The position numbers and the translations under genes were made by a program. The notes below the pieces were generated by a model. The model was given only the letters and a program-made list of their open reading frames with translations. It searched no databases and was not told the DNA's origin. Of a stretch of DNA of 22,290 nucleotides, positions 5,515 through 22,290 are shown piece after piece; positions within the stretch are counted from its first letter, which is position 1, and each line of letters starts with the position of its first letter. The DNA comes from a virus (Duplodnaviria > Heunggongvirae > Uroviricota > Caudoviricetes), in the IMG/VR virus record IMGVR_UViG_2675903562_000009; one strand, given 5' to 3'.

Positions 5515-5537
5515 AAGCACGGTGTTCGGAGTTTTTT

Positions 5538-6485: not shown

Positions 6486-6491
6486 CGTGTC

Positions 6492-7238
6492 ATGAAAAAC
6501 ATTGCGGCAGGTGGTGTTCTTGAGCGTATCCGTAAGCTGGCCCCACAGCATGTAATCGCGCCGTACCGGACAGTGGACGAGTGGCGCGAGTGGCAACTAG
6601 CAGAAGGGCGAAAACGTAGCGAGGAAATCAACCGCCAGAATCGCCAGTTGCGGGTGGAAAAAATCCTGAATCGTTCGGGCATCCAGCCTCTGCACAGCAA
6701 ATGCTCGTTTGCGAATTATCAGGTGCAGAATGACGGGCAAAAACACGCGCTGAGCCAGGCAAAATCCATCGCTGACGAACTGATGACCGGGTGCACGAAT
6801 TTTGTGTTCAGCGGTAAGCCGGGTACCGGAAAGAACCACCTTGCAGCCGCCATTGGTAATCATCTTCTGGCGAAAGGTCGCAGCGTGATTGTGATAACGG
6901 TGGCTGATGTGATGCTGGCGTTACACAACAGCTACGACAACAAAAACTCAGGCGAAAAATTTTTACAGGGGTTGTGTGATGTTGACCTGCTTGTCCTGGA
7001 TGAAATCGGAATGCAGCGGGATACGCGCAACGAGCAGGTCACGCTGAACCAGATAGTCGACCGCAGAACGGCTTCGATGCGCAGTGTCGGAATGCTGACA
7101 AACCTGAACCACGTAGCGATGAGTACGCTTCTTGGTGAGCGTGTAATGGACCGCATGGTCATGAACGGTGGTCGCTGGGTGAATTTTAACTGGGAGAGCT
7201 GGCGTTCGAATGTCAGGCACCTGAGGGTTGTGAAGTAA
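6492..7238 (+). CDS. DnaC-like helicase loader (AAA+ ATPase, IstB/DnaC family)
   Basis: 248 aa; Walker A FSGKPGTGKNHLAAAIG; strong end-to-end resemblance to E. coli DnaC as remembered (NRSGI.PLH..CSF.NY, LLVLDEIG, TNLN, LGERVMDRM). Confidence 0.9.
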   Translation: MKNIAAGGVLERIRKLAPQHVIAPYRTVDEWREWQLAEGRKRSEEINRQNRQLRVEKILNRSGIQPLHSKCSFANYQVQNDGQKHALSQAKSIADELMTGCTNFVFSGKPGTGKNHLAAAIGNHLLAKGRSVIVITVADVMLALHNSYDNKNSGEKFLQGLCDVDLLVLDEIGMQRDTRNEQVTLNQIVDRRTASMRSVGMLTNLNHVAMSTLLGERVMDRMVMNGGRWVNFNWESWRSNVRHLRVVK

Positions 7239-7259
7239 TTTTGTCCGGAGGAAATTTTA

Positions 7260-8021
7260 ATGGAAACCGTTTTTGACGCACTGAAAGCAATGGGAAAAGC
7301 CACATCCATAGAACTTGCTGCGCGACTTGATATCAGTCGTGAAGAAGTGCTGAACGAACTATGGGAACTGAAAAAGGCTGGTTTCGTTGATAAAAGCGCG
7401 TACACCTGGCGTGTGGCTGATAACAACGTTCAGCAGGAACAGCCAGCGCAGGCAGAACTGCCGGAAGAAACCTCCACGGCGACAGTAGCGAAAATCTCAG
7501 AGTGCGATTTAACCGCGACGATTGAACAACACGGACCACAAACGGCTGATGAGCTGGCTACATTGTTTGGTACCACATCACGCAAAGTGGCTTCAACGCT
7601 GGCAATGGCAATCAGCAAAGGACGCCTGATTCGTGCAAATCAGGACGGTAAATTTCGTTACTGCATGCCGGGCGATAATTTACCAGCAGAGCCGAAAGCA
7701 GCATCGGTAGCGGAAACTGATGGTAAAGCCTTTCCTCAGCCTGCATGTGTTGCGTTACCAGTACAGGAGGCTGCAACACAGGAAGATATTAAAACAGAAA
7801 CTGTGGCGGACATTGTGCAGTCGCTGCCATCGTTTACTGAAACGCGAGCGGATGACCTGGTTTTACCATCGCTGCATATGGCAAACCGCGAACTGCGTCG
7901 GGCGAAAAGTCATGCCCAGAAGTGGGAACGAGTCTGCGCCGCGCTGCGGGAGCTGAACAAGCACCGGGATATTGTTCGACATATTTTCGATTCCTCCAGT
8001 CATATTGTGTCGGAAAAGTGA
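7260..8021 (+). CDS. Hypothetical phage protein with two winged-helix-like segments
   Basis: 253-aa ORF with GGAGG SD; two HTH-like stretches ([28 protein letters not shown] and [30 protein letters not shown]). Confidence 0.65.
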
Positions 8022-8037
8022 TTCCTGGGGAGGGCTT

Positions 8038-8460
8038 ATGGCAAAAGTTTTTACACAAGAAGAGCGAGAAAAAATTAAAGGGCAGGTTGTTGAACTCGTA
8101 CGCCAGAGTGGGCGTGAGACGTTACGGCAACTGGAAGTCAAGACAGGTGCGACAAGATATCTGATGAGCGTTCTCGCAAGAGAGCTGGTTGCCAGCGGCG
8201 ATGTATACAACTCTGGTTACGGGTTATTCCCGTCTGAACAGGCGCGTAAGGACTGGCAAAATGCCCGTAAAAAACTATCAAGGGCAAAGGTGAAGAAACC
8301 GGTTGTGGTTGATCCTGACCTTATCTGGTCATTACCCGACGGAGAAATACGTCGTTACGACAGGCGTCTGAACATAATCTGTCGCGAGTGCCGGAAGAGT
8401 GAGGTTATGCAGCGAGTGCTGGCGTTTTATCAGGGTAATTTTCAGGAGGTGATGGCGTGA
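8038..8460 (+). CDS. Hypothetical phage protein (140 aa)
   Basis: Track ORF 7972..8460 trimmed to ATG 8038, which follows a GGGGAGGG SD. Confidence 0.6.
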   Translation: MAKVFTQEEREKIKGQVVELVRQSGRETLRQLEVKTGATRYLMSVLARELVASGDVYNSGYGLFPSEQARKDWQNARKKLSRAKVKKPVVVDPDLIWSLPDGEIRRYDRRLNIICRECRKSEVMQRVLAFYQGNFQEVMA

Positions 8461-8870
8461 GGGTGAGGGTTTATATCGCTGGTCCGATGACCGGGTATAA
8501 AAATTTCAACCGTGAGGCGTTCCACAAGGCGGAAGAGGAACTGAAACGGGAAGGGCATACAGTCTTGAACCCGGCAGTACTTCCGGACGGGCTGACACAG
8601 CCACACTACATGGATATCTGCATGGCGATGATTCGTTGCGTGGATGCGATTTACATGCTGCAAGGCTGGCAGCGGTCAGCAGGCGCTAAAGCGGAACTGG
8701 CTCTGGCGGAGAAGCTAGGGCATGTGGTTGTTTTTCAGAGGGGGCGATATGCCGATTCTCTGGTTTCAGGAGGTGTGGGAAAAAGAAATGTGGGAAGGTC
8801 TTGTGATTGTGGCCGAAACAGTTCTTTTATTATGGTCTGTGATTGCGTGTATTTTTATGATTTATTGTGA
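8457..8870 (+). CDS. DUF4406-like protein (nucleoside 2-deoxyribosyltransferase-like fold)
   Basis: GTG start overlapping the upstream stop (GTGA) with AGGAGG 6 nt upstream; N-terminal YIAGPMTG...NF pattern typical of this family; the Cys-rich C-terminal tail is atypical. Confidence 0.55.
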   Translation: MRVRVYIAGPMTGYKNFNREAFHKAEEELKREGHTVLNPAVLPDGLTQPHYMDICMAMIRCVDAIYMLQGWQRSAGAKAELALAEKLGHVVVFQRGRYADSLVSGGVGKRNVGRSCDCGRNSSFIMVCDCVYFYDLL

Positions 8871-8902
8871 ATGATGTGAATCTCGCGGTGGCCACTGAAT
8901 TG

Positions 8903-8943
8903 CAACCATTACCCCCTGTGATGTAATTGTGGGGTAATGGTTG
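8903..8943. repeat. Perfect 13-bp inverted repeat (CAACCATTACCCC / GGGGTAATGGTTG) with 15-nt spacer
   Basis: Read directly from the sequence, in the 5' leader of the 8978 gene; no T-tract follows, so it is not a classical terminator. Confidence 0.6.
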
Positions 8944-8977
8944 CGCAGGCATAGCGACAGGACTGGATGAGAAAAAT

Positions 8978-9400
8978 ATGACGAAATTTACCAGAGAGCA
9001 ATTGATTGCTCATGCTAATGAAAGTGTGAAATCCATGAAATTTGCTGCGCGACAGACCGTGTTTAAGACTTCAAGAGTTGCCATTGAAATGGATCTTGCG
9101 CTTGCCCGTATTGCGCTTGCCTCACTTGAAGCAATGCCAGTTGCATGGTCCTGTGCTCACAATATGGTTTTGTTCAATGCTGAATCTGTTGCGGCATACG
9201 CAAAACACTCAGCCATTGCGCCAAAACCCCTGTACGCTGCGCAACCGGCATCACTTTCACATGAGGAAGAGTTGACAATGCTGGTTAAACAATTGGTAAG
9301 TCAGTTGAAAAAAGCGAAACCAGATTGCAAATTACCGGATATGGCGATGGGGTATCTGGAGCGGAATGGGCTGATAAGCGCGGAGGATGTTTTACGATGA
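8978..9400 (+). CDS. Hypothetical phage protein (140 aa)
   Basis: Track ORF 8927..9400 trimmed to the ATG at 8978 (MTKFTREQLIAH...). Confidence 0.55.
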   Translation: MTKFTREQLIAHANESVKSMKFAARQTVFKTSRVAIEMDLALARIALASLEAMPVAWSCAHNMVLFNAESVAAYAKHSAIAPKPLYAAQPASLSHEEELTMLVKQLVSQLKKAKPDCKLPDMAMGYLERNGLISAEDVLR

Positions 9401-9480
9401 CCTGGCCGGAGGCATTCACAACGACAGGAATTGCAATGGCGGCAGCACTTGTTGTGTATTCGATTTGCCGCTGGGGATAA
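9397..9480 (+). CDS. Candidate 27-aa single-pass membrane peptide
   Basis: ATG overlaps the upstream stop (ATGA) and has a GGAGGA SD 9 nt upstream; encodes MTWPEAFTTTGIAMAAALVVYSICRWG. Below the ORF-track size cut-off. Confidence 0.35.
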   Translation: MTWPEAFTTTGIAMAAALVVYSICRWG

Positions 9481-9691
9481 AAACGGTTTGCAGTGAAAGG
9501 GGAGTTAAGTAGAATTGCTGCGGGTGCTTGAGGCTATCTGCCTCAGGCATGAACACCAAAAGGCAGATAGAGAAAAGCCCCAGTTAACATTACGCGTCCT
9601 GCAAGACGCTTAACATTAATCTGAGGCTCAATCTATGTCTCACAAATGTAGGTTAGCCTCTTACGTGCCGAAAGGCAAGGAGAAGCAGGCT

Positions 9692-9847
9692 ATGAAGCAG
9701 CAAAAGGCGATGTTAATCGCCCTTATCGTCATCTGTTTAACCGTCATAGTGACGGCACTGGTAACGAGGAAAGACCTCTGCGAGGTACGAATCCGAACCG
9801 GCCAGACGGAGGTCGCTGTCTTCACAGCTTACGAACCTGAGGAGTAA
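9692..9847 (+). CDS. hok: Hok/Gef-family type I toxin (51 aa) with in-frame upstream extension from 9635
   Basis: MKQQKAMLIALIVICLTVIVTALVTRKDLCEVRIRTGQTEVAVFTAYEPEE is near-identical in pattern to Gef/HokC as remembered; AAGGAGAAG SD; structured leader upstream and a 3' hairpin (GCGAGGG...CCCTCGC at 9856-9877) typical of hok mRNAs. Confidence 0.8.
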   Translation: MKQQKAMLIALIVICLTVIVTALVTRKDLCEVRIRTGQTEVAVFTAYEPEE

Positions 9848-9915
9848 GAGACCAGGCGAGGGAGAAATCCCTCGCCACCTCTGATGTGTCAGGCATCCTC
9901 AACGCACCCGCACTT

Positions 9916-9937
9916 AACCCGCTTCGGCGGGTTTTTC
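9916..9937 (+). terminator. Rho-independent terminator after hok
   Basis: AACCCGC-TTCG-GCGGGTT followed by TTTTT. Confidence 0.7.
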
Positions 9938-10062
9938 GTCGCATAATGAGGTTGTAATTTTAGCTACCATTAGACTATCCTAAGGATCTCAAACAGATCT
10001 ATTTTGCATCAAATTTGGTGCATGGCTTTGCCAATAATCGGAAAACAAAAGGACTCATTAGT

Positions 10063-10242
10063 ATGAGCTGCCCACTCAAAAAACACACGCGGTTGAGTAT
10101 TCCGCCTCGCGATAAAAGCGTTGTGGCAGTCCCTCGCCCAGCGATTGATGAAAACTGCGCACATCGTGAACAAGTGAAAAATGCTTTTGATTTCGGTTTT
10201 TCTCGTTATGAGAAAGCCATGGAAGAACTTTCAAAAGTGTAA
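10063..10242 (+). CDS. Small ORF (59 aa) upstream of the Doc-like toxin; candidate antitoxin
   Basis: AAGGA SD 9 nt upstream of ATG 10063; ends 18 nt before the Doc-like start; sequence not recognisably Phd/YefM-like. Confidence 0.45.
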   Translation: MSCPLKKHTRLSIPPRDKSVVAVPRPAIDENCAHREQVKNAFDFGFSRYEKAMEELSKV

Positions 10243-10260
10243 TGATGGGTATTGTGCTCT

Positions 10261-10746
10261 ATGGCTGAGATTGTTGAAGGAGTGCATTACCTTACGGTTG
10301 ATGATCTTGTTGAAATCAATCGTTCCCTAATTGAATTACAGACGCCAGATGAGCCCGTTGGTGTTCTGAGTCCAGATAACTTAAGTTCTTCTCAGGCCCG
10401 TCCCAGCATGGTTCGATGGTATGAACAGACTAATGACATGTTTGTACTGGCATCGGTATTGATTGAAAGTCTGATTCAGAATCATCCGTTTGCTAATGCG
10501 AACAAACGAACAGCTATGATGGCTGGTTACGTCTTCTTGTTGTTGAATGGCTATGAGTTAACAGCACCAGGCGATGAAATCGTGGAAATGGCAGAGGGAC
10601 TGGCCTGCAAAACCTATACTCGAGAAGATCTCGAGAACTGGTTGTGTTATTGGTCTCGCGCGTATGACAGCCGGGAATTATGTAAAACAGGCGCAACTAT
10701 TGTTTTGTATGAAACTATCAAGCTTAAAATAGAACAGCAAAACTAA
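10261..10746 (+). CDS. Doc/Fic-family toxin-like protein
   Basis: Contains HPFANANKRTA, matching the Doc-type variant of the Fic motif (HxFx[D/N][A/G]NKR); size is appropriate for a Fic/Doc family member. The track start is a TTG at 10252; the ATG at 10261 is preferred. Confidence 0.7.
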   Translation: MAEIVEGVHYLTVDDLVEINRSLIELQTPDEPVGVLSPDNLSSSQARPSMVRWYEQTNDMFVLASVLIESLIQNHPFANANKRTAMMAGYVFLLLNGYELTAPGDEIVEMAEGLACKTYTREDLENWLCYWSRAYDSRELCKTGATIVLYETIKLKIEQQN

Positions 10747-10760
10747 AGGTGCTTCCAATG

Positions 10761-10789
10761 AAAACCCGCTTCGGCGGGTTTTGTTTTTT
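10761..10789 (+). terminator. Rho-independent terminator after the Doc-like gene (possibly bidirectional)
   Basis: AAAACCCGC-TTCG-GCGGGTTTT followed by GTTTTTT; same stem-loop sequence as the terminator at 9916. Confidence 0.7.
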
Positions 10790-10861
10790 CCTGGCATTCT
10801 GGTTTACAATTCGCACGCCAGCCTGAACAACTGGCACCTGCTGCGCCAGCAGAGACAACCG

Positions 10862-11134
10862 ATGGCGCACAAAAACAAATTTCACAATTCTGATACCGAC
10901 CTTGCCATCCGGCACGGGCGGCGTTCACACGCATTTAAAACCGACTGGTACCAACACCCACCATGTACTGAAGAACAGGCCGAATGGCTAATTCATAACT
11001 ACCGCAGGCGCGGATACGAGGTTAAGAAAGCCCTCAGCCTCGATTATCGTCACTGGATAATCTATGTCAGGCTCCCTTATTCCGAACGCCCACCGCGTCC
11101 GTCCCGCACATTCCAGCAACGCATCTGGAGGTAA
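10862..11134 (+). CDS. Hypothetical protein (90 aa)
   Basis: Track ORF 10781..11134 trimmed to ATG 10862, because the longer form would begin inside the terminator. Weak SD; its stop immediately precedes the SD and GTG start of the next gene. Confidence 0.4.
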   Translation: MAHKNKFHNSDTDLAIRHGRRSHAFKTDWYQHPPCTEEQAEWLIHNYRRRGYEVKKALSLDYRHWIIYVRLPYSERPPRPSRTFQQRIWR

Positions 11135-11135
11135 C

Positions 11136-12185
11136 GTGCGGGTATTACTTCGACCTGTTCCGGTACCGGAACTTGGGCTGGTGGTGCTAAAACCGGGCCG
11201 TGAATCCATGCAGGTATTTCATAACCCTCGAGTTCTGGTGGAGCCGGAACCGAAAAGCATGCATGGTCTGCCGTCCGGAGTCGTTCCTGCTGTTCGCCAG
11301 CCGCTGGCGGAGGATAAATCATTACTGCCATTTTTCAGCGATGAGCGGGTGATTCGTGCTGCTGGTGGTGCTGGTGCATTGTCTGACTGGCTGTTACGCC
11401 ACGTTAAATCCTGCCAGTGGCCTCATGGTGACTATCATCACAGTGAAACCGTTATTCACCGTTATGGTACTGGCGCAATGGTGTTGTGCTGGTACTGCGA
11501 CAACCAGCTGCGTGACCAGACTTCTGAATCACTCGGGCAGCTTGCTCACCAAAACCTGTCAGCATGGATGATTGATGTCATCCGCCACGCAATGAATGGC
11601 ACGCAGGAGCGGGAATTATCGCTGGCTGAATTATCCTGGTGGGCGGTCTGCAATCAGGTGGCGGACGCGCTACCAGAGGCAGCATTACGTCGTTCTCTGG
11701 GGTTACGTGCGGAAAAAATTCGCTCAGTATACCGCGAGAGCGACATCGTGCCGGGAGAGCAGACCGCCACCAGCATGCTGAAGCAGCGCACAAAAAATCT
11801 TGCGCCGCTGCCTCACGCCCACCAGCAACAGAACCCACCACAGGAAAAGACGGTGGTCAGCATTGCCGTTGATCCTGAGTCTCCGGAATCTTTCATGAAA
11901 CGACCTAAACGTCGCCGCTGGGTTAACGAGAAATACACACGCTGGGTGAAGACACAGCCGTGTGCGTGTTGTGGTAAGCCAGCCGACGATCCCCATCACC
12001 TGATTGGTCATGGTCAGGGCGGAATGGGGACAAAATCTCACGATATTTTCACGCTACCGCTGTGTCGGGGGCATCACAACGAGCTTCATGCGGATCCGCT
12101 GGCGTTCGAAGAAAAGCATGGTTCTCAGGTTGATTTAATTTTTCGTTTTCTTGATCACGCCTTTGCAACTGGCGTGCTTGGGTAA
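11136..12185 (+). CDS. DUF968-family protein with HNH-like Cys/His-rich C-terminus
   Basis: GTG start 3 nt after a GGAGGT SD and directly after the upstream stop; C-terminus PCACCGKPADDPHHLIGHGQGG...LPLCRGHHNELH. Confidence 0.7.
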   Translation: MRVLLRPVPVPELGLVVLKPGRESMQVFHNPRVLVEPEPKSMHGLPSGVVPAVRQPLAEDKSLLPFFSDERVIRAAGGAGALSDWLLRHVKSCQWPHGDYHHSETVIHRYGTGAMVLCWYCDNQLRDQTSESLGQLAHQNLSAWMIDVIRHAMNGTQERELSLAELSWWAVCNQVADALPEAALRRSLGLRAEKIRSVYRESDIVPGEQTATSMLKQRTKNLAPLPHAHQQQNPPQEKTVVSIAVDPESPESFMKRPKRRRWVNEKYTRWVKTQPCACCGKPADDPHHLIGHGQGGMGTKSHDIFTLPLCRGHHNELHADPLAFEEKHGSQVDLIFRFLDHAFATGVLG

Positions 12186-12197
12186 AAGAGGTGACTG

Positions 12198-12557
12198 ATG
12201 CTCATAGATTTGGTTTTACCTTACCCGCCGACGGTGAACACTTACTGGCGACGCCGTGGCAGCACATATTTTATCTCGGAGGAGGGAAAGCGTTATCGCC
12301 GGGCTGTGGCGCTTATTGTTCGCCAGCAGCGGCTGAAATTAAACCTGTCCGGAAGGCTGGCGATAAAGGTGATTGCAGAGCCACCGGATAAACGTCGTCG
12401 TGACCTGGACAATATCCTGAAAGCACCACTGGATGCACTGACACATGCGGGGTTGCTTATCGACGACGAGCAGTTTGATGAAATTAATATTGTGCGCGGT
12501 CAGCTTGTTCCTGGTGGGCGGTTGGGGATAAAAATCACAGAACTGGAGTGCGCATGA
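12198..12557 (+). CDS. rusA: RusA-family Holliday junction resolvase
   Basis: 119 aa; LPYPPTVNTYWRRRG N-terminus and the RRRDLDN...LIDDEQ acidic motifs characteristic of RusA. Confidence 0.85.
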   Translation: MLIDLVLPYPPTVNTYWRRRGSTYFISEEGKRYRRAVALIVRQQRLKLNLSGRLAIKVIAEPPDKRRRDLDNILKAPLDALTHAGLLIDDEQFDEINIVRGQLVPGGRLGIKITELECA

Positions 12558-13243
12558 ATAACCAGTATTTACAGTTTGTTCGTGAGCAACTCATGATTGC
12601 CACCGCCGATTTGAGTGGATCAACAAAAGGGCAGCTTGAAGCCTGGCAGGAGAATGCCATGTTCGATACAGGGCGTTACAGGCGAAAAAAAATCCGGTAC
12701 CGCGATGAAGTGACTGGAAAAATGATAACGCGGGATAATCCACCAATCCCGGGAAAGCAATCGCTGGCGAAAGGTTCATCAATTGCCCTGGTCAGTCCGG
12801 TTGAGTTTTCGACATCATCATGGCGACGCGCCGTTCTGTCTCTTGAAGAGCATCAGAAGGCGTGGGTGCTGTGGGTATACAGTGAAAATCCGAGTTGGGA
12901 TTATCAGGTGGTCATTGCGAAATGGGCGTGGGATAAGTTTCAGGTGCATTTTGGCACCAGAAAAATTACAGGGAAAACGCTTGAGCGTCTGAAGAAATTA
13001 ATCTGGCTGGCGGCGCAGGATGTCAGGGGGAGGATTACTGGGCGTGACGTCTACCAGCGACAGGAACTTGCCAGACTGTGTGGAGTTAAGCCTGACAACT
13101 GGAGCCATAATTATGCGAACTACTGGCGTGAGATGTGCGACATTTTTAAGAAACTCGATACAGAATCCTTGATTTGCACCGTGAAAATGAGATCGCAACA
13201 AAAAGCGACCTTTTCACGACGAGATATTGCAAAAGTCAATTAA
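12554..13243 (+). CDS. Candidate late-gene antiterminator (Q-like), assigned by position
   Basis: 229-aa ORF (ATG overlapping the rusA stop, GGAG SD); last gene of the nin-like region, immediately followed by a promoter-like element and a strong terminator, as for lambda Q/pR'/tR' and Qin ydfU-quuQ. No motif-level confirmation. Confidence 0.5.
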   Translation: MNNQYLQFVREQLMIATADLSGSTKGQLEAWQENAMFDTGRYRRKKIRYRDEVTGKMITRDNPPIPGKQSLAKGSSIALVSPVEFSTSSWRRAVLSLEEHQKAWVLWVYSENPSWDYQVVIAKWAWDKFQVHFGTRKITGKTLERLKKLIWLAAQDVRGRITGRDVYQRQELARLCGVKPDNWSHNYANYWREMCDIFKKLDTESLICTVKMRSQQKATFSRRDIAKVN

Positions 13244-13255
13244 ATCGCATACATT
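13227..13255 (+). promoter_or_regulatory. Candidate late promoter (pR'-like)
   Basis: TTGCAA (13227-13232), 17 bp, TACATT (13250-13255); would give a roughly 50-nt transcript ending at the terminator at 13291-13315. Confidence 0.3.
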
Positions 13256-13290
13256 TTATGTAAATGTGATATTTTGCCGTATAGTGTGTA

Positions 13291-13315
13291 AACCCGCTTA
13301 AATGCGGGTTTTTTG
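13291..13315 (+). terminator. Rho-independent terminator (tR'-like)
   Basis: AACCCGC-TTAAAT-GCGGGTT followed by TTTTTT. Confidence 0.75.
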
Positions 13316-13387
13316 CTTAACTCTGTGGACCTTTTTATCTGTAGTTGTAAGATATGGATATTCTTACAATTTAGGTCGGTGAGCTTA

Positions 13388-14152
13388 ATGGAAGAACAGC
13401 ACGGTAATTACTTTATAAAACGAATTCAGTTGATTGGAAGGGGTGCATTTGGCTTTGTTGAACACGTTAAGGTTTACAACCTCAACAAGGGTGAATGTGG
13501 GGATTATGCTAGAAAGGTTTTAGCCCCCGAAAAACCAGAGCTTTTGGCGCAAATAGAGCAGTTTAGAAGGCGTTTTAAAAGGGAGGTCGTGTATCAATCA
13601 CATTGCGTACATAGCAATATTGTTCCTATTTATTTGTGCGATTTGTTTGCCGAGAATCCATGGTTCATTATGGATAAAGCAGAATGTGATCTTGAGCACG
13701 AAATAACGAACAACCTTCTTACAACAGATCAAAAAATTTCAATAGTGAAAATGGTATTAGATGGTGTAGCTCACATCCATGCGAAAGGCTATTTACACAG
13801 AGATATAAAACCATTTAATGTCTTGCGATTTAGCGACGGAACATACAAGGTGTCTGATTTTGGTCTGGTAAAAGATACAAATCCCGAAGGGGATACCACT
13901 AAATTGACCGAGATCGGTACCCGTATGGGAAGTACAAGATATATGGCTCCCGAGATTTTATATAATGCCGAGTATTCAGTTAAGACTGATGTTTATGCGG
14001 TGGGGCGGTTAATTGAGGACTTAAATTTAGATGATAAAAAAATAAAGCCTATCATAGCGAAGTGTACCAGGATGGATAAAGATGATAGATATCAGACAAT
14101 AGATGATGTGGCGTTTGATTTTGTGCATTCTTTTTTAAGGAGTGAGTCATGA
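13388..14152 (+). CDS. Hanks-type (eukaryotic-like) Ser/Thr protein kinase
   Basis: 254 aa from ATG 13388. Gly-rich loop GRGAFGFV, lysine in YARKVL, catalytic loop HRDIKPFNVL, DFG (VSDFGLV) and APE (YMAPEIL) motifs all present; region is visibly AT-rich relative to neighbours (not computed). Confidence 0.85.
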   Translation: MEEQHGNYFIKRIQLIGRGAFGFVEHVKVYNLNKGECGDYARKVLAPEKPELLAQIEQFRRRFKREVVYQSHCVHSNIVPIYLCDLFAENPWFIMDKAECDLEHEITNNLLTTDQKISIVKMVLDGVAHIHAKGYLHRDIKPFNVLRFSDGTYKVSDFGLVKDTNPEGDTTKLTEIGTRMGSTRYMAPEILYNAEYSVKTDVYAVGRLIEDLNLDDKKIKPIIAKCTRMDKDDRYQTIDDVAFDFVHSFLRSES

Positions 14153-14892
14153 TTCAGCTGATAGCGACTTCATCATTCTCGTATCCAAAAGAACCAGGTA
14201 GGGTCAACGAAGATTCATTGCTTCCTCCCAAAATTGTAGGGGATGGCATCTTATTTGCCGTAGCTGATGGTGTAGGTTCATACACTGGTGCCAGTCAGGC
14301 TTCATCAATGGCAATTGCTGAACTTTCAGCATTGACAAGCTTATCTTTTGACACAGTTCCGGATGTATTTGATGAAGTTAAGCGAAAGGTTATGTCGTTA
14401 GCTGATGTTAATGATGAGTTCGATAAAGCTGCTACTACACTTACGTTTTGTTATGTTTGTGATAGCGGAATTATTATTGGTCATATTGGTGATTGTCGTT
14501 TGTATTGCATTGGAGAGAAGAAAGCATACCAATTGACGAAGGACGATACCAGGCATCAGATGCTAATTGATCAGAATATTTTTAAACCCAGAGATTTGAA
14601 GGATAAACCGGGCAAAAATATCTTAACGACGGCTATAGCCTCAAATGTTGATATGGAATACGACTGTGATTTTATCACATGGAAAGATTTACCTAGTATT
14701 AACGGGGTATATCATCTGTGTATCATGTCTGATGGGGTTCATAACGTTTGGGAAAAACGCCCCAGATTTACATCAAATACGATGAGTAATAGTCAGAAGT
14801 TTTCTAATGGCATTTTGCGTCGTATAGAGAGAGCCGGACCTGATGATGACTTTTCTTTAGTAAGTATAATGGTGCGTGTGACGTCAGATTAG
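14149..14892 (+). CDS. PP2C-family Ser/Thr protein phosphatase
   Basis: 247 aa; start overlaps the kinase stop (ATGA) with AAGGAG SD; metal-binding motifs VNEDS, AVADGVGS, GDCR and MSDGV typical of bacterial PP2C phosphatases. Confidence 0.85.
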   Translation: MIQLIATSSFSYPKEPGRVNEDSLLPPKIVGDGILFAVADGVGSYTGASQASSMAIAELSALTSLSFDTVPDVFDEVKRKVMSLADVNDEFDKAATTLTFCYVCDSGIIIGHIGDCRLYCIGEKKAYQLTKDDTRHQMLIDQNIFKPRDLKDKPGKNILTTAIASNVDMEYDCDFITWKDLPSINGVYHLCIMSDGVHNVWEKRPRFTSNTMSNSQKFSNGILRRIERAGPDDDFSLVSIMVRVTSD

Positions 14893-14967
14893 TTGTATAA
14901 ACTCAGTAGGGAATGCTAATTTCACATACAACATAGTTAAAGAAAACTTAATTTTAATGTAAAAAGG

Positions 14968-14996
14968 CTGCCCTCAGGCGGTCTTTTTATGCTCGA
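14968..14996 (+). terminator. Probable intrinsic terminator after the kinase-phosphatase operon
   Basis: Imperfect hairpin GGCTGCC-CTCA-GGCGGTC (one G-U pair, one mismatch) followed by TTTTTAT. Confidence 0.4.
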
Positions 14997-15110
14997 AAAT
15001 TGATGCAGTACGTTAAACGCGCTGGTGGTTGCGAATACCGGTCTTTCAGCTTGCTGGCTTTTTAGACAAGAGTTATTGGTATGTCACGTTAACCAGAAAA
15101 GGGAAAAAGA

Positions 15111-15309
15111 CATGCTAAAACAGCAGGATATGACCGAAACCGCCAGAGTGGTGTTTAATGAATTAAGCGTCACCGAACCGGCGACCGTCGGGGAAATTGC
15201 GCAGAATACTTACCTTTCACGCGAACGCTGCCAGTTAATCCTGACCCAGCTTGTTATGGCGGGTCTGGCAGATTATCAGTTCGGTTGTTACAGACGCCTT
15301 CTGCAGTGA
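15111..15309 (+). CDS. Small putative winged-helix DNA-binding protein (66 aa)
   Basis: Track ORF 15025..15309 trimmed to ATG 15111 (MLKQQDMTETARVVFNELSVTEPATVGEIAQNTYLSRERCQLILTQLVMAGLADY); lies upstream of the methyltransferase. Confidence 0.55.
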
Positions 15310-15459
15310 AGGCTTTTTAATTTGTGGTAATGGGCGGCTGGTGGGTGTTAGCGGCACCTGCCAGCCATCTGCTCATGCGTTGGGGTCACAAGCAAACCTC
15401 AGGCCCATCTGCTTTGCGCAAAAGCAGTATGAGCCTATCAGAGAAGTGCTTATTGATCT

Positions 15460-16509
15460 ATGACTAATACTGTAAAAATATCCAGTTGTGAGTTAATCAA
15501 CGCTGATTGCCTGAAATTTATCCAGACCTTACCGGAAAACTCTGTCGATCTGATAGTCACAGACCCGCCATACTTTAAAGTGAAGCCCGAGGGCTGGGAT
15601 AACCAGTGGGAGGGCGACGATGATTACCTGAAATGGCTGGACCAGTGTCTGGCGCAGTTCTGGCGGGTACTGAAGCCTGCCGGAAGTCTTTACCTGTTCT
15701 GTGGTCATCGCCTGGCATCTGACACCGAAATCATGATGCGTGAGCGCTTTAATGTGCTGAACCACATTATCTGGGCGAAGCCGTCCGGACGCTGGAACGG
15801 GTGCAATAAGGAAAGTCTGCGGGCGTATTTTCCGGCAACAGAGCGCATTCTGTTTGCAGAACATTATCAGGGACCGTATCGCCCGAAAGATGATGGCTAT
15901 GTGGCACAGGGGCGCGAGCTAAAACAGCACGTCATGGCCCCGCTGATTTCTTACTTTCGTGATGCGCGTAAATCACTGGGAATAACGTCAAAACAGATAG
16001 CGGAAGCCACCGGAAAGAAAAACATGGCTTCGCACTGGTTTGGTACCAGTCAGTGGCAGTTACCGAACGAGGGTGATTACAACAAATTGCAGGCGTTGTT
16101 TGCGCGTGTTGCGGCAGAAAAACATCAGCGCGGGGAACTGGAAAAGCCACACCACCAGCTGGTCAGCACATACAGTGAGCTGAACCGGCAGTACACGGAA
16201 CTGCTGAGTGAATATAAAAATTTGCGGCGGTATTTCGGTGTGACGGCGCAGGTTCCGTACACCGATGTCTGGACGCATAAACCGGTGCAGTACTATCCAG
16301 GAAAACATCCGTGCGAAAAACCGGCAGAAATGCTGCAGCAGATAATCAACGCGAGCAGTCGTCCGGGAGACCTGGTTGCAGATTTTTTTATGGGTTCAGG
16401 TTCAACGGTAAAAGCGGCGATGGCACTGGGGCGTTGTGCGATTGGTGTTGAGCTGGAGACAGGACGTTTTGAACAGACAGTCAGGGAAGTTCAGGATTTA
16501 ATCGTTTGA
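15460..16509 (+). CDS. Orphan DNA methyltransferase (N6-adenine/N4-cytosine class, beta-type motif order)
   Basis: 349 aa; motif IV DPPY (VTDPPYF) near the N-terminus and motif I FFMGSGST near the C-terminus; overall architecture like YhdJ-type enzymes. No restriction endonuclease gene is adjacent. Confidence 0.9.
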   Translation: MTNTVKISSCELINADCLKFIQTLPENSVDLIVTDPPYFKVKPEGWDNQWEGDDDYLKWLDQCLAQFWRVLKPAGSLYLFCGHRLASDTEIMMRERFNVLNHIIWAKPSGRWNGCNKESLRAYFPATERILFAEHYQGPYRPKDDGYVAQGRELKQHVMAPLISYFRDARKSLGITSKQIAEATGKKNMASHWFGTSQWQLPNEGDYNKLQALFARVAAEKHQRGELEKPHHQLVSTYSELNRQYTELLSEYKNLRRYFGVTAQVPYTDVWTHKPVQYYPGKHPCEKPAEMLQQIINASSRPGDLVADFFMGSGSTVKAAMALGRCAIGVELETGRFEQTVREVQDLIV

Positions 16510-16558
16510 AACGGATGAGATTGCAGAATTAATTACGCACCATTATTATTCTGCTCCC

Positions 16559-16634
16559 GGCCCTTTAGCTCAGTGGTGAGAGCGAGCGACTCATAATCGC
16601 CAGGTCGCTGGTTCAAATCCAGCAAGGGCCACCA
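16559..16634 (+). tRNA. tRNA with CAU anticodon; closely resembles E. coli tRNA-Ile2 (ileX-type, lysidine-dependent), Met not excluded
   Basis: 76 nt with perfect 7-bp acceptor stem (GGCCCTT/AAGGGCC), D-arm GCTCAGTGGTGAGAGC, anticodon loop CTCATAA, T-loop TTCAAAT and encoded CCA. Confidence 0.85.
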
Positions 16635-16635
16635 A

Positions 16636-16712
16636 CCGTCACCAGTTCATCAGGAAAGAGCGTCAACCCTTTAAGTTGAGTGTGCGAGGTTCGAGTCCTC
16701 GGTGGCGGGCCA
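16636..16712 (+). tRNA. Non-canonical tRNA-like gene (anticodon loop CCTTTAA, nominal UUU) or tRNA pseudogene
   Basis: Acceptor stem CCGTCAC/GTGGCGG (one G-U), T-arm CGAGG-TTCGAGT-CCTCG and encoded CCA, but C at positions 8 and 33 and an atypical D-arm. Begins 1 nt after the preceding tRNA. Confidence 0.45.
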
Positions 16713-16714
16713 GT

Positions 16715-16790
<76 letters not shown>

Positions 16791-16793
16791 TAT

Positions 16794-16868
<75 letters not shown>

Positions 16869-17142
16869 GCATTTGAAATAAGCCTTATTGTATTGCAGCA
16901 CTGGCGTATTTTTTATTACGTGGGAGCAGGTTGTTTTAAGAGACATTCTGTTCTCTGGCTATGATTTGAGGCCAGGTTAGCCTCAGTGCTGATTTTTTTT
17001 ACGACAGCAGAATGGTGCATTATCGGTGGAGATTTTGTATTTCCTGGCAGGGTCGGTAATGCATCATTCTGATGTTGTAAGCATCGCTCAGAATAACGTT
17101 GAGATTAATCGCGTACTAAGCAAAACTTGGAAATACATCCTT

Positions 17143-17168
17143 AACCGCCGCACCAGGCGGTTTTTTTT
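17143..17168 (+). terminator. Rho-independent terminator
   Basis: AACCGCC-GCACCA-GGCGGTT followed by eight T. Confidence 0.75.
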
Positions 17169-17183
17169 ATTCATTTTTTTCAT

Positions 17184-17206
17184 GGCTCGCTACGGCGGGC
17201 CTTTTT
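17184..17206 (+). terminator. Rho-independent terminator (second of a stack)
   Basis: GGCTCGC-TACG-GCGGGCC followed by TTTTT. Confidence 0.55.
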
Positions 17207-17292
17207 CATATCCTCGCCACACCCGGCGCATATCACATCAAATAACGCCGCGCAAAAGGCATCTGCGGGCGCCTTTGACGGGGTGTTTTTAC

Positions 17293-17314
17293 GGGCCGCT
17301 GGTGGCCCTTTTTT
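17293..17314 (+). terminator. Rho-independent terminator (third of a stack), 20 nt upstream of the next start codon
   Basis: GGGCC-GCTGGT-GGCCC followed by TTTTTT. Confidence 0.65.
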
Positions 17315-17333
17315 ATTTACAGGAGAAAAACGT

Positions 17334-18746
17334 ATGTCTGAACCCTTATCTGGTTCCGGCACGGCTGCGGCGCTCGGTGGGGCGACGGTATTCGGGCTGT
17401 TTACCGGAACGGATTTCGGGATTGTGTTTGGTGCGTTCGCCGGGGCGTTATTTGTGGCAACGATGCCGCAGGCGCTTTCAATCTGGCGTGTGGTGGCGCA
17501 TTTTTTGGTGTCGTTTATCGTCGGCGTGCTGGGGGCGCGCGTGCTGTCAGCCTGGATTGCATCAAAAACAGGGTATGACGGTACATCGGCAGATGCGCTG
17601 TGTGCGGTGCTGGTATCGGTGGTGTCGGTGAAGATTGCGGATATCAGGCAGGTTGAAACCACAGCACGCTATCTTGGCACGGCGCTGTACTGGATAGCCG
17701 CCAGTATCAATATCAGGCCGGGCCATAATTATTATTTTTACGTTCGCAGTGTGAACACCGTTGGCAAATCGGCATTCGTGGAGGCTGTTGGTCAGCCGAG
17801 TGATGACGCATCCGGCTATCTGGATTTTTTCAAAGGCGAGATAGGGAAAACCCATCTGGCTCAGGAGCTGTGGACGCAGATTGATAACGGTCAGCTTGCG
17901 CCTGACCTGGCTGAAATCAGGACATCCATTACGGATGTCAGCAATGAAATCACACAGACCGTCAATAAGAAACTGGAAGACCAGAGTGCAGCGATCCAGC
18001 AGATACAGAAGGTTCAGGTTGATACAAATAATAACCTGAACAGCATGTGGGCTGTGAAGCTGCAGCAGATGCAGGACGGACGCCTTTATATCGCGGGTAT
18101 CGGTGCCGGTATTGAGAATACGCCAGCAGGCATGCAGAGTCAGGTGCTGCTGGCGGCAGACAGGATTGCGATGATTAATCCTGCGAATGGCAACACAAAG
18201 CCGATGTTTGTTGGTCAGGGCGATCAGATATTCATGAACGAAGTGTTCCTGAAATATCTGACGGCTCCCACCATTACCAGCGGCGGTAATCCTCCGGCAT
18301 TTTCCCTGACACCGGACGGAAAGCTGACCGCTAAAAATGCGGATATCAGTGGCAGTGTGAATGCGAACTCCGGGACGCTCAACAACGTCACGATTAACGA
18401 GAACTGCCGGGTTCTGGGAAAACTGTCCGCGAACCAGATTGAAGGCGATCTCGTTAAAACAGTGGGCAAAGCTTTCCCCCGGGACTCCCGTGCACCGGAG
18501 CGGTGGCCATCAGGGACCATTACCGTCAGGGTTTATGACGATCAGCCGTTTGACCGGCAAATTGTTATTCCGGCGGTGGCATTCAGTGGCGCTAAGCATG
18601 AGAGAGAGCATACTGATATTTACTCCTCATGCCGTCTGATAGTGCGGAAAAACGGTGCTGAAATTTATAACCGTACCGCGCTGGATAATACGCTGATTTA
18701 CAGTGGCGTTCCCGCCGTCACATGCCGGGACCATCACCGTGTATGA
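17334..18746 (+). CDS. Chimeric ORF: about 100-aa hydrophobic N-terminus joined to a C-terminal fragment resembling tail-tip host-specificity protein J; likely a deletion remnant
   Basis: ATG 17334 with AGGAGA SD. First ~100 aa contain three hydrophobic stretches. From about [42 protein letters not shown] onward the sequence parallels the C-terminal third of lambda J as remembered ([42 protein letters not shown]). Confidence 0.6.
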
Positions 18747-21480
18747 AGATTCCCGACCCGGTACGCTGAATGATTTTCTCGGTGCCATGACGGAGGATGA
18801 TGCCCGTCCGGAGGCACTGCGCCGTTTTGAACTGATGGTGGAAGAGGTGGCGCGTAACGCGTCCGCAGTGGCACAGAACACGGCAGCCGCGAAGAAGTCA
18901 GCCAGTGATGCCAGCACATCAGCCCGTGAGGCGGCAACCCATGCGACTGATGCTGCAGGCTCAGCACGCGCAGCCAGCACGTCAGCCGGACAGGCCGCGT
19001 CGTCGGCTCAGTCAGCGTCTTCCAGCGCAGGAACGGCATCGACAAAGGCCAGTGAAGCAGCGAAAAGTGCTGCTGCTGCAGAGTCATCAAAAAGCGCGGC
19101 AGCTACCAGCGCCAGTGCCGCGAAAACGTCAGAAACGAATGCCGCAGCATCACAAAAATCGGCAGCCACTTCTGCATCCACAGCGACCACGAAGGCGTCA
19201 GAAGCTGCCACCTCGGCACGGGGGGCGGCGGCCTCAAAAGAGGCAGCGAAATCATCAGAAACGAATGCATCATCAAGTGCCAGTAGTGCAGCTTCCTCGG
19301 CAACGGCGGCAGGAAATTCCGCGAAGGCGGCAAAGACGTCTGAGACAAACGCTAAGTCTTCTGAAACGGCAGCAGCACAGAGTGCCTCAGCTGCGGCAGG
19401 TTCAAAAACAGCGGCTGCATCGTCGGCCAGTGCCGCGTCAACAAGTGCCGGGCAGGCCTCAGCCAGTGCCACCGCCGCCGGAAAATCGGCAGAAAGCGCC
19501 GCATCATCCGCTTCAACAGCCACAACGAAGGCTGGCGAAGCCACTAAGCAAGCCACTGCAGCAGCGAGGTCTGCTTCTGCAGCAAAAACCTCTGAAACAA
19601 ATGCAAAGACTTCAGCAGACAATGCTGCTTCCTCTAAGGCGGCAGCCGCATCGTCCGCTGGTTCAGCGGCGTCATCGGCATCATCTGCGTCTGCTTCAAA
19701 AGATGAGGCGACCAGACAAGCGTCAGCAGCGAAAGGTAGTGCCACGACAGCAACAACGAAAGCATCAGAGGCGGCAGGCAGTGCGACGGCTGCATCTCAG
19801 AGCAAAGTTGCTGCTGAATCCGCGGCAACGCGTGCCGAAACAGCAGCAAAACGGGCAGAGGATATTGCTGATGCCGTATCTCTGGAAGATGCGAGCACGA
19901 CGAAAAAAGGTGTGGTTCAGCTCAGCAGTGCGACCAACAGCACTTCCGAGTCACTGGCGGCAACACCAAAGGCAGTAAAGGCAGCATATGACCTTGCTAA
20001 CGCAAAATATACCGCTCAGGATGCAACGACGGCACGAAAAGGGATAGTTCAGCTCAGTAGCGCCACTAACAGCCCGTCTGAAACGCTGGCTGCGACACCA
20101 AAAGCGGTTAAGGCGGTAATGGATGAAACGAACAAGAAAGCGCCTTTAAACAGTCCTGCGCTGACCGGAACGCCAACAACGCCAACTGCGCCAAAAGGGA
20201 CTAATAATACTCAGATCGCAAGCACGGCTTATGTGATGGCCGCGATTGCCGCACTTGTAGACTCGTCGCCTGACGCACTGAATACGCTGAACGAGCTGGC
20301 GGCGGCGCTGGGAAACGACCCGAATTTTGCGACCACCATGACTAACGCGCTTGCGGGTAAGCAACCGAAAGATGCCACCCTGACGGCGCTGGCCGGGCTT
20401 GCTACTGCGGCAGACAGGTTTCCGTATTTTACGGGGAATGATGTCGCCAGCCTGGCAACCCTGACAAAAGTCGGGCGGGATATTCTTGCGAAATCGACCG
20501 TTGCCGCTGTTATCGAATACCTCGGTTTACAGGAAACGGTAAGTCAGGCTTCTGGCGCATTACAGAAAAACCAGAACGGCGCAGATATTCCAGGAAAAGA
20601 TACCTTCACCAAAAATATTGGTGCCTGCCGCGCATATAGCTCATGGCTGAATATTGGTGGCGATAGTCAGGTCTGGACAACCGCGCAATTTATTTCGTGG
20701 CTGGAGAGTCAGGGGGCATTTAACCATCCTTACTGGATGTGCAAAGGCTCATGGGCTTATGCAAATAATAAGGTCATTACAGATACAGGTTGCGGAAATA
20801 TTTGTCTTGCAGGTGCTGTGGTGGAAGTTATTGGCACTCGCGGCGCAATGACCATACGCGTTACTACGCCGAGCACGTCCAGCGGTGGCGGAATTACTAA
20901 CGCTCAATTCACTTATATTAATCATGGTGATGCTTACGCTCCTGGCTGGCGACGAGACTACAACACGAAAAACCAGCAGCCTGCATTTGCTTTAGGGCAA
21001 ACAGGACGCAGGGTCGCAAATGATAAAGCTGTTGGCTGGAACTGGAATAGCGGTGTTTATGATGCAGATATCAGTGGTGCATCGACATTAATCCTCCACT
21101 TCAATATGAATGCGGGGAGTTGCCCTGCTGTACAGTTCCGCGTGAATTACAGGAACGGCGGTATTTTTTATCGTTCAGCGCGTGATGGTTATGGCTTTGA
21201 AGCTAACTGGTCAGAGTTTTACACCACAACACGCAAACCCTCTGCGGGGGATGTTGGTGCATATACGCAGGCAGAATGTAACTCAAGGTTTATTACAGGT
21301 ATTCGCCTTGGCGGTCTGTCATCTGTTCAGACATGGAAAGGCCCCGGCTGGTCTGACAGGTCAGGTTATGTCGTTACGGGTTCAGTTAACGGAAACCGTG
21401 ATGAATTAATTGATACAACTCAGGCAAGGCCAATTCAGTATTGCATTAATGGGACGTGGTATAACGCGGGGAGTATTTAA
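18703..21480 (+). CDS. stf: Side tail fibre protein (Stf/StfR-like), lacking the usual N-terminal about 55 aa
   Basis: 925-aa ORF. Begins at a GTG with no SD, exactly at the conserved [15 protein letters not shown] motif; long Ala/Ser-rich repeat region; duplicated KKG(V/I)[21 protein letters not shown] module; C-terminal domain with YRNGG(I/L)FYRS(A/S)RDGYGFE. Opposite-strand and alternate-frame ORFs here are artefacts. Confidence 0.85.
18880..19900 (+). repeat. Coding low-complexity tandem repeats (Ala/Ser/Thr-rich fibre shaft)
   Basis: Recurring DNA units such as GCGAAAACGTCAGAAACGAATGC / GCAAAGACGTCTGAGACAAACGC encoding AKTSETNA-type motifs. Confidence 0.7.
20511..20536. other. gix/pix/cix-like crossover site for a Gin/Pin-family DNA invertase, inside stf
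   Basis: TTATCGAATACCTCGGTTTACAGGAA differs at about 2 positions from the Mu gix sequence as remembered (TTATCCAAAACCTCGGTTTACAGGAA); it lies in the codons for [10 protein letters not shown], the conserved constant/variable boundary of invertible tail-fibre genes. Confidence 0.7.
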
Positions 21481-21482
21481 CG

Positions 21483-22016
21483 ATGATGCACTTAAAAAAC
21501 ATTACTGCTGGCAACCCTAAAACAAAAGAGCAATACCAGCTAACAAAGCAATTTAACATCAAATGGCTTTATTCAGATGATGGAAAAAACTGGTATGAGG
21601 AACAAAAGAATTTCCAGCCAGACACTTTGAAAATGGTCTATGACCATAACGGCGTTATTATTTGTATTGAAAAGGATGTTTCAGCAATTAATCCAGAGGG
21701 TGCAAGCGTCGTTGAATTACCTGATATTACAGCAAATCGCCGGGCTGATATTTCGGGGAAATGGATGTTCAAAGATGGCGTAGTGATAAAGCGAACTTAT
21801 ACCGAGGAAGAGCAGAGGCAACAAGCGGAAAATGAAAAGCAAAGCCTGTTGCAACTTGTCAGGGATAAAACCCAGCTATGGGACTCACAGCTACGGCTGG
21901 GCATCATTTCCGACGAGAATAAACAAAAATTAACCGAGTGGATGCTCTATGCGCAGAAAGTCGAATCTACAGACACCTCCAGCCTGCCAGTAACATTTCC
22001 AGAACAACCAGCATGA
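21483..22016 (+). CDS. tfa: Tail fibre assembly protein (Tfa family)
   Basis: 177 aa immediately after stf (GGGGAG SD); C-terminal pattern EEQRQQAE...L.EW..Y...V...DTSS.P..FPEQP typical of Tfa chaperones. Confidence 0.8.
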   Translation: MMHLKNITAGNPKTKEQYQLTKQFNIKWLYSDDGKNWYEEQKNFQPDTLKMVYDHNGVIICIEKDVSAINPEGASVVELPDITANRRADISGKWMFKDGVVIKRTYTEEEQRQQAENEKQSLLQLVRDKTQLWDSQLRLGIISDENKQKLTEWMLYAQKVESTDTSSLPVTFPEQPA

Positions 22017-22021
22017 AACAA

Positions 22022-22046
22022 GGCCCGATAGCGGGCCTTAATTTTT
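22022..22046. terminator. Hairpin between convergent tfa genes (probable bidirectional terminator)
   Basis: GGCCCG-ATAG-CGGGCC followed by TTAATTTTTATT on the plus strand and by a short T-containing tract on the minus strand. Confidence 0.5.
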
Positions 22047-22290
22047 ATTCAGGCTTTTGTGGCCATTCAGGATTTGCCGTATCCACACGGCTGACCAGAA
22101 CACTGTAGCGTCCCCATGCTTCCAGTCGTGTGCGTTCCTCGTCTGTTGCCATATTCAGCCTGACAGCGCGTTCCAGCGGCCGAATAACGCTTTCTGCTTC
22201 GGAAAGTAACGCGGCCTTTTGTGATTCGGCCTGTTGTTGCTGTTCGTCAGCCGTATAAATCCGTTTAACGACTGCGTCGTCCTTAAACAT
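22045..22290 (-). CDS. Inverted second tfa-like gene, 5' part beyond window end (alternate tail-fibre cassette)
   Basis: Minus-strand ORF whose product ([21 protein letters not shown]...[26 protein letters not shown]) parallels the C-terminal half of the plus-strand Tfa; the ATG at the window edge corresponds to an internal Met of the plus-strand Tfa, so the gene probably extends past 22290. Confidence 0.7.

Follow-up and report, generated by a model that had tools for sequence, protein, structure and literature searches.

A probable holin–J fusion pseudogene produced by microhomology deletions in a defective lambdoid prophage at the Escherichia coli ompW locus

The stretch of DNA analysed here, called the window below, is 22,290 nucleotides long and carries phage genes in lambdoid order: exonuclease, dicB, repressor/cro, O/P-like genes, RusA and Q. 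It was aligned by blastn to L001, an intact collinear prophage of E. coli 504239, which serves as the reference. The part of the window that runs from Q to its right end holds the following features.

12548–13243, plus strand: antiterminator Q gene (Pfam Phage_antiter_Q, E = 5e-84; 71% amino acid identity to the Q of L001)
13290–13311, plus strand: candidate tR' immediately downstream of Q, a terminator-like hairpin with an 8-bp stem and then a T-run (from a consensus scan; putative role)
13313–16509, plus strand: cargo block with a Ser/Thr kinase, a PP2C phosphatase and a DNA methyltransferase (Pfam)
13313–14152, plus strand: Ser/Thr kinase (Pfam; PADLOC matches PD-T4-6, mad6 and Stk2)
14149–14892, plus strand: PP2C phosphatase (Pfam)
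15460–16509, plus strand: N6/N4 DNA methyltransferase (Pfam; PADLOC match MTase_II)
16559–16868, plus strand: four tRNA genes (ARAGORN), with anticodons CAT (Met/Ile2), TTT twice (Lys) and Gly-TCC
17143–17314, plus strand: block of three terminator-like hairpins with T-runs (17143–17162, 17184–17201 and 17293–17308; consensus scan; putative function), directly 5' of the chimeric reading frame and within its upstream 190 nt
17334–18746, plus strand: chimeric open reading frame, 470 amino acids plus stop (ATG at 17334, stop at 18744–18746)
17334–17636, plus strand: holin-derived segment, codons 1–101 of a putative holin of 129 amino acids, with three hydrophobic segments
17633–17636, plus strand: junction 1, GATT, a 4-bp microhomology of the holin and J parents (three-way alignment; the blastn blocks overlap by 4 bp)
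17637–18710, plus strand: J-derived segment, amino acids 102–459, with the second Ig-like domain, the tail-tip domain and the first 60% or so of the receptor-binding domain
18709–18710, plus strand: junction 2, TT, a 2-bp microhomology of the J and stf parents (three-way alignment; blastn blocks)
18711–18746, plus strand: 11 out-of-frame stf codons, then the stop (translation and alignment)
18709–21480, plus strand: stf remnant without its first 66 codons or a start of its own (phage_tail_N, profile positions 67–134 of 134; Stf residues 67–704 by tblastn)
21483–22016, plus strand: apparently intact tfa (Pfam Caudo_TAP; 99% amino acid identity to Tfa2 of L001)
22048–22290, minus strand: second tfa fragment (tblastn), part of an invertible tail-fibre segment, which runs off the window

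The product of the Q gene would drive transcription of the late operon. The cargo block that follows Q is absent from L001 and present in the copies of the prophage in E925, E1316, E1739 and E24377A. A preliminary description of the locus placed the chimeric reading frame directly after a Q-like gene and cargo; both are indeed found upstream, but the four tRNA genes lie between the cargo and the reading frame. Relatives have annotated tRNAs at the equivalent place, and the first TTT tRNA (16636–16712) is either annotated as tRNA-Arg or left unannotated in them. A Shine-Dalgarno sequence, AGGAG, is present at 17321–17325, 8 nt 5' of the ATG of the chimera. Transcription of the chimera would probably depend on Q antitermination, because one hairpin follows Q and three others precede the reading frame, as in lambdoid late operons. 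If Q turns on late transcription, the first late product to be made would be the chimera.

The N-terminal part of the chimera derives from a putative holin. Residues 1–102 match the Pfam family Phage_holin_8 (PF16931; profile positions 1–100 of 121, E = 7e-19, 68.6 bits for a cutoff of 26.4), PHROG 198 ("holin") covers residues 1–101 with E = 4e-35, and tblastn gives 98% amino acid identity (two differences) to residues 1–101 of the L001 holin. In a Kyte-Doolittle profile, hydrophobicity peaks three times, around residues 36, 62 and 95. The preliminary description had read the first 100 residues or so as membrane-like, with three hydrophobic segments, and as possibly a holin; both proposals agree with these data, and the 101 N-terminal residues, which were also checked for a genuine match to J, align to the holin and not to J. 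The third hydrophobic segment is clipped by the junction, as VSVKI/LSFI in the holin becomes VSVKI/ADIR in the chimera. The chimera is not a complete holin, since it has only residues 1–101 of 129. Nor does the holin segment lie beside an endolysin, an arrangement that holds in L001, L006 and phage phiP27 and that is lost in the window, where the endolysin is deleted. "Holin" is used here as a family label for a gene of putative activity, the first of two holin-like genes in a phiP27-type cassette.

The larger part of the chimera derives from the tail-tip protein J. Pfam recognizes Ig_J_second at residues 99–166 (profile positions 37–104 of 105, so that the match begins in mid-profile), Phage_Tail_Tip at residues 220–348 and Ig_GpJ_C at residues 377–457 (only profile positions 1–84 of 135). 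The NCBIfam model lambda_TipJ (NF049904) aligns residues 99–459 with its positions 750–1114 of 1163, and the score of 603 bits is below the curated cutoff of 1950 for a whole J. Structures of lambda J (PDB 8iyk, 8xcj and others) match residues 100–459 of the chimera at about residues 752–1083 of 1132. In lambda numbering, residues 102–459 thus correspond to about 753–1083, that is, to the second Ig-like domain, the tail-tip fibre and part of the receptor-binding domain. In contrast to lambda J, the chimera has neither the N-terminal 750 residues or so, which form the tail-tip hub, nor the last 48 residues of the receptor-binding domain, which are also missing in comparison with the parent sequence, and the window holds none of the partner tail genes. 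The remainder of the protein had been described as the C-terminal third of J. This is correct as regards its start, near residue 753, but the final 48 residues of J are gone and 11 stf codons stand at the end.

Nucleotide comparison finds no difference over 1,078 nt (100.000% identity) between the J segment and the J genes of the E. coli prophages L009 and L010, and several full-length J proteins are 100% identical across the part of J that the chimera retains. Identities of 97–100% to known genes are far above chance and, as far as sequence comparison goes, fix the identity of each part of the chimera.

The intact prophage L001 has the order Q, tRNAs, putative holin, second holin, M15 endolysin, ISCro1, terS/terL, portal, head genes, tail genes, J, lom, stf and tfa. 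In the blastn alignment, window positions 16521–17636 correspond to L001 16659–17776 (tRNAs and holin codons 1–101), 17633–18710 to L001 40117–41194 (J from about codon 753) and 18709–20591 to L001 42271–44153 (stf from codon 67). The window therefore differs from L001 by two deletions. The first, between holin and J, is in frame and amounts to 22,344 bp of L001, or about 19.6 kb once the 2.7-kb ISCro1 insertion, which is private to L001, is subtracted. It takes the 3' end of the holin gene, the second holin, the M15 endolysin, cos, the terminase, portal, capsid and tail genes, and continues through the first two thirds of J. The second, between J and stf, is a deletion of 1,078 bp relative to L001 which takes the end of J (48 codons), the whole of lom and codons 1–66 of stf. 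The chimera stops 11 codons past the second junction because this deletion is out of frame; the frame of the stf remnant differs from that of the chimera. Further to the right, positions 20504–22290 (about 1.8 kb, the invertible tfa segment) are opposite in orientation to L001.

The preliminary description explained the locus by an internal deletion that joined the 5' end of a membrane-protein gene to the 3' part of J, with a loss of about 20 kb. The fusion is real and the gap relative to L001 has the expected size, but there are two deletions, and the 20 kb or so may plausibly have gone in one step.

Base-level alignment of the 40 nt that flank each junction reveals no similarity between the joined parents other than the GATT and the TT. 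The junctions have the features of microhomology-mediated deletions: the flanks are collinear, the parents share a few bases, and neither junction coincides with a long repeat, an IS end or an att site, so that an IS-mediated or a site-specific deletion was rejected. A deletion between two chromosomal prophages was also rejected, since the flanks on either side are parts of a single element at a single locus, and the ompW-side host genes follow directly to the right. The chimera is thus very probably a fusion pseudogene, made by microhomology deletions, in a defective lambdoid prophage at the ompW locus of E. coli. An illegitimate (homology-independent) deletion would have joined codon 101 of the holin gene to about codon 753 of J at the GATT, in frame by chance, and a second, small deletion at the TT would have linked a point 48 codons short of the end of J to codon 67 of stf. 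In E. coli, such deletions are known to arise by replication slippage as well as by alternative end-joining, and either may have produced those seen here.

The extent of the loss was assessed by a tblastn search of the window with 52 proteins of L001. Matches were obtained for the early genes, Q, residues 1–101 of the holin, residues 67–704 of Stf, and Tfa. The same search of the window gave no second holin, endolysin, terS, terL, portal, protease, decoration protein, capsid, FI, FII, Z, U, V, G, H, M, L, K, I or Lom. The stretches of the window that do not align to L001 correspond to genes annotated as non-structural in L004, a copy which is 99.6% identical (DicB, repressor/Cro, DUF1627, Doc-type toxin, kinase, PP2C and methylase). 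The claim that lysis and morphogenesis genes are missing is thus upheld by the negative search of the window, and none was found elsewhere in the prophage either, whether in the window or in the flank up to ompW'/yciE.

The ends of the element were located by means of related sequences. The same contig past the window (L002, 100% identical over window positions 7334–22290) passes straight from the tfa fragment into yciE/F/G and trpA, and in the near-identical copies of E925 and E1316 the tfa fragment and yciE are separated by an annotated ompW fragment. At the left end of the E925 copy, int and xis adjoin an intact ompW. The ompW gene is described in the literature on STEC as a recognized prophage integration site. 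With lambdoid gene order at a chromosomal attachment site, and with the lysis, packaging and virion genes absent, the element is, by its gene content, a cryptic lambdoid prophage.

Judged by its gene content, the element would be unable to lyse its host, to package DNA or to form particles, because there is no endolysin, the holin is clipped, cos and the terminase, head and tail genes are gone, the J fragment lacks the hub and a full receptor-binding domain, and stf has no start. It retains the repressor, the replication genes, Q, the toxin modules and the cargo of kinase, phosphatase and methylase.

Phage phiP27 (an Stx2e phage, AJ298298) has the late order methylase L24, tRNAs, stx2e, L28 (putative holin), L29 (putative holin) and L30 (endolysin). 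Positions 15006–17636 of the window are about 91% identical to phiP27 and have the same gene order, the N-terminus of the chimera being the homologue of L28. Unlike phiP27, the window passes from the tRNAs to the holin without stx, it has lost L29, L30 and all that follows them, and its tRNA set and Q module differ.

The element also resembles the cryptic prophages Rac, DLP12, Qin and e14 of E. coli K-12. Like them, it is fixed in the chromosome, has lost its morphogenesis genes by internal deletions, and keeps regulatory genes, toxin-like modules, cargo and a truncated J/lom/stf/tfa region at its right end. It differs from them by its ompW site, its phiP27-type lysis cassette and its breakpoints. 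DLP12 and Qin keep their lysis cassettes, whereas the cassette of the window element is destroyed. The relative L009 has the Rac-type arrangement Rz-trkG-ynaK-J'. Defective prophages that are "grounded", or domesticated, are presented as a general pattern in a review (PMC6379469) which cites Bobay et al. 2014 (PMC4143005).

The same prophage is found at ompW in three ETEC strains, E925, E1316 and E1739, which share the cargo and have a near-identical left arm. Outside one recombination patch, their left arms are at least 99.9% identical to the window: the E925 copy has 4 differences across positions 3000–17636, the E1316 copy 6 differences in 10.1 kb and the E1739 copy 5 differences in 6.5 kb. 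None of the three copies has head or tail genes or an intact lysis cassette, and the deletions differ. In E925, codon 39 or so of the M15 endolysin is joined to the 3' end of stf, a deletion that spares the two holin genes and the 5' part of the endolysin gene. In E1316, the holin gene is cut at a point equivalent to window position 17619, which is 17 bp from the breakpoint of the window, and joined to an inverted tfa fragment. In E1739, a point 90 bp upstream of the holin gene is joined to codon 118 of lom. None of these three deletions makes a holin–J fusion. The window, E925 and E1739 types each hold sequence that the others have lost, and at least three independent deletions must therefore have occurred. 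The four left breakpoints lie no more than about 0.9 kb apart, at the lysis cassette or shortly ahead of it. In this small sample, the clustering fits selection against the lysis genes with retention of the Q-proximal cargo, which we infer as one explanation; a local deletion hot spot may be another.

The chimera itself has a narrow distribution. The exact protein of 470 amino acids, including the 11 frameshifted codons, is found on 33 E. coli contigs (NCBI, ENA and Logan), the longest of which is 4.87 Mb, and its name at NCBI is "DUF1983 domain-containing protein [Escherichia coli]". Both junctions are also present in another assembly, L003, which differs from the window only by a patch of 22 SNPs at 11576–11858. 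Carriers include the strains behind GCA_012387645.1 and GCA_000773575.1. The holin/J junction occurs in 0 of 5,426 complete RefSeq genomes of E. coli, and the exact 40-nt pattern that spans it has no match in a collection of species-representative genomes (32.2 million contigs). The chimera is thus a lineage-restricted allele. All its known copies are identical, and its J and holin parts are near-identical to intact alleles, which indicates that the fusion is recent. The 100% nucleotide identity of the J part to intact alleles, together with the two amino acid differences of the holin part from L001, shows that no decay has taken place since the fusion.

A search of 5.8 billion proteins gave no other holin–J fusion among the 120 best hits listed. 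Among these, every hit with a reported coverage extends over at most 77% of the chimera and matches the J part only. The top hit, P0004, whose coverage was unreported, was considered as a holin fusion and rejected, since it is a J remnant of Shigella sonnei with an internal duplication.

The route by which the chimera arose may have had more steps than a comparison with L001 suggests. The ancestor could already have been short of most morphogenesis genes, for instance as a Rac-like remnant, and the holin/J event would then be a later, smaller deletion or a recombination with the J of another prophage; we regard this as possible, though less likely than not. It draws on L009 (E. coli 2741950), which has the same ompW/yciE flank, a Rac-like Rz-trkG-ynaK::J remnant and no head or tail genes left, and whose J is 100.000% identical to window positions 17633–18710; its contig stops short of the left arm. 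The stf of the window is only 96–97% identical to those of L009, L010 and E1739. This divergence and the identical J allele of L009 in its Rac-like setting indicate that the right arm is a mosaic, and the two separate deletions of the window are themselves in keeping with stepwise decay. The holin/J event may therefore have removed less than 20 kb from an element that was already defective. Against this, E925, with its near-identical left arm, keeps the holin, the second holin and the 5' end of the M15 gene of a phiP27/L001-type cassette, and not Rz-trkG. A tail-intact prophage at potB is the other element with a J part of 100% identity, and no complete genome was found that joins either an L009-type or a potB-type element to this left arm. 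Under either route, the chimera is made by deletion and the genes are absent.

Based on its sequence, the fusion pseudogene described above is most likely a non-functional by-product. It is very improbable that the in-frame fusion is a maintained functional gene, either a Q-dependent membrane toxin, acting in abortive infection when a related phage supplies Q, or a membrane-anchored J fragment directed against superinfecting phages. The reading frame is in frame with a native start and a Shine-Dalgarno sequence, it keeps three hydrophobic segments, the terminator-like hairpins upstream fit control by Q, it is unchanged on the 33 contigs, and the neighbouring cargo looks defence-like according to PADLOC. 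However, a join is in frame in one case out of three by chance, and the identity of all the copies gives no sign of purifying selection. The receptor-binding domain is cut within Ig_GpJ_C and the reading frame ends in frameshifted stf codons, and the third hydrophobic segment is clipped at the junction. Moreover, PADLOC gives no defence-family match for the chimera, the 120 best hits listed contain no comparable fusion, and the sister strains have deleted the same region without producing one. An extended form of the proposal, in which holin residues 1–101 fused to J residues 753–1110 would stand first in a Q-dependent late operon, be made once a resident or superinfecting lambdoid phage provides Q, and be active as a membrane-damaging abortive-infection effector or as a membrane-anchored tail-tip decoy, and in which the recurrent loss of the lysis and structural genes would reflect selection for a fixed defence island with its cargo, appears equally improbable.

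That the chimera is an assembly artefact, a holin contig mis-joined to a J contig of another prophage, was suggested by the absence of the junction from the complete RefSeq genomes and from the species-representative collection and by the many repeats of J and stf sequences in each genome, but it has a negligible probability and is effectively refuted by the exact-protein look-ups, as the protein occurs with the 11 alien codons of the second junction on 33 contigs from several sources, one of them of 4.87 Mb, at least two distinguishable assemblies carry it, an overlap of 4 bp is insufficient for an assembler to make a join, and the flanks follow, in collinear order, a single prophage at a single locus.

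The fusion pseudogene is a product of ordinary prophage decay and leaves the understanding of that process unchanged. It matters for annotation, since the name "DUF1983 domain-containing protein" implies an intact gene where a flag as fusion pseudogene is warranted. As the element would, by its gene content, neither lyse the cell, nor be packaged (cos is gone), nor form particles, its kinase/PP2C/methylase cargo, its toxin modules and its tRNAs would be fixed in the chromosome of the host. A single point is modestly interesting, namely that disarmament has recurred independently in sister strains: a single prophage that has undergone at least three independent deletions of its late region in ETEC copies is a compact natural case of rapid disarmament, which could serve to estimate how fast deletions occur or how strongly lysis genes are selected against.

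The late-region deletion differs in each of the near-identical ompW prophage copies of the ETEC strains E925, E1316 and E1739, all of which correspond to window 17244-22290:

L004, NZ_LR883050.1, sister copy in E925
L005, NZ_CM180512.1, sister copy in E1316
L007, NZ_CM180506.1, sister copy in E1739

The left breakpoints of these deletions cluster within about 0.9 kb, either at the lysis cassette or a short way upstream of it. At least three of these deletions arose independently.

The same nucleotide of lom ends two different deletions, that of E1739 and that of the E24377A copy (L008): positions L007:6464 and L008:10943 both correspond to position 41762 of L001, the intact collinear prophage of E. 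coli 504239, at codon 118/119 of lom (ATA|TGGCTTACAG). On its left, this nucleotide is joined to sequence upstream of the holin gene in E1739, and to the 3' end of terS in E24377A. Among complete E. coli genomes, each of the two junctions is found only in its own genome. The common endpoint may reflect a hot spot, or it may result from sequential deletion.

The cargo located between Q and the tRNAs is kept in all the deleted copies, and is missing from the intact L001:

13313-16509, eukaryotic-like Ser/Thr kinase, PP2C phosphatase and N6/N4 DNA methyltransferase

Three defence models of PADLOC (PD-T4-6, mad6 and Stk2) match the kinase. The methylase-tRNA-holin skeleton (window 15006-17636) is about 91% identical to that of the Stx2e phage phiP27 (L011, AJ298298, 15606-19458). 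The phage phiP27 carries stxA2e and stxB2e between the tRNAs and the holin gene, where the window has no stx genes. ARAGORN identifies a second tRNA-Lys(TTT) at 16636-16712; the equivalent sequence is annotated by PGAP as tRNA-Arg in TW10690 and is unannotated in E925, E1316 and E1739, and this tRNA may not be a tRNA-Lys, or may not be intact. The small open reading frame which precedes the holin gene in L001 (hyp9, 86 aa) is split between two frames in the window (16996-17242), where its equivalent is a pseudogene with a frameshift or else no genuine gene.

A further element lies at the ompW/yciE flank in E. coli 2741950:

L009, positions 1-5666 (GCA_000356225.2, APXF01000116.1)

Its gene order is Rac-like (Rz, trkG, ynaK fused to a FNIII domain of J, then J), and in the J segment it matches the window with 100% identity; it looks like a hybrid of Rac-type and ompW-type prophages. 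The top match of the chimeric protein, a 608 aa "host specificity protein J" from Shigella sonnei (P0004), is a J remnant in which about 200 tail-tip residues are duplicated internally, and thus a J pseudogene rearranged in another way.

The segment which encodes the tail-fibre C-terminus and tfa (20504-22290) is inverted with respect to L001, and resembles an invertible cassette of the Pin/Gin type. The sister copies have no annotated invertase gene between this segment and the ompW fragment, so that its orientation is probably frozen.

Between prophage copies that are otherwise identical, the differences come in clusters. The window differs from L003, a second assembly which has both of its junctions, by 22 SNPs in 283 bp of the DUF968 gene (11576-11858), and from the E925 copy by 61 differences in 2 kb of the exonuclease/dicB region (1000-2999). 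Such clusters are what gene conversion from other resident prophages typically leaves.
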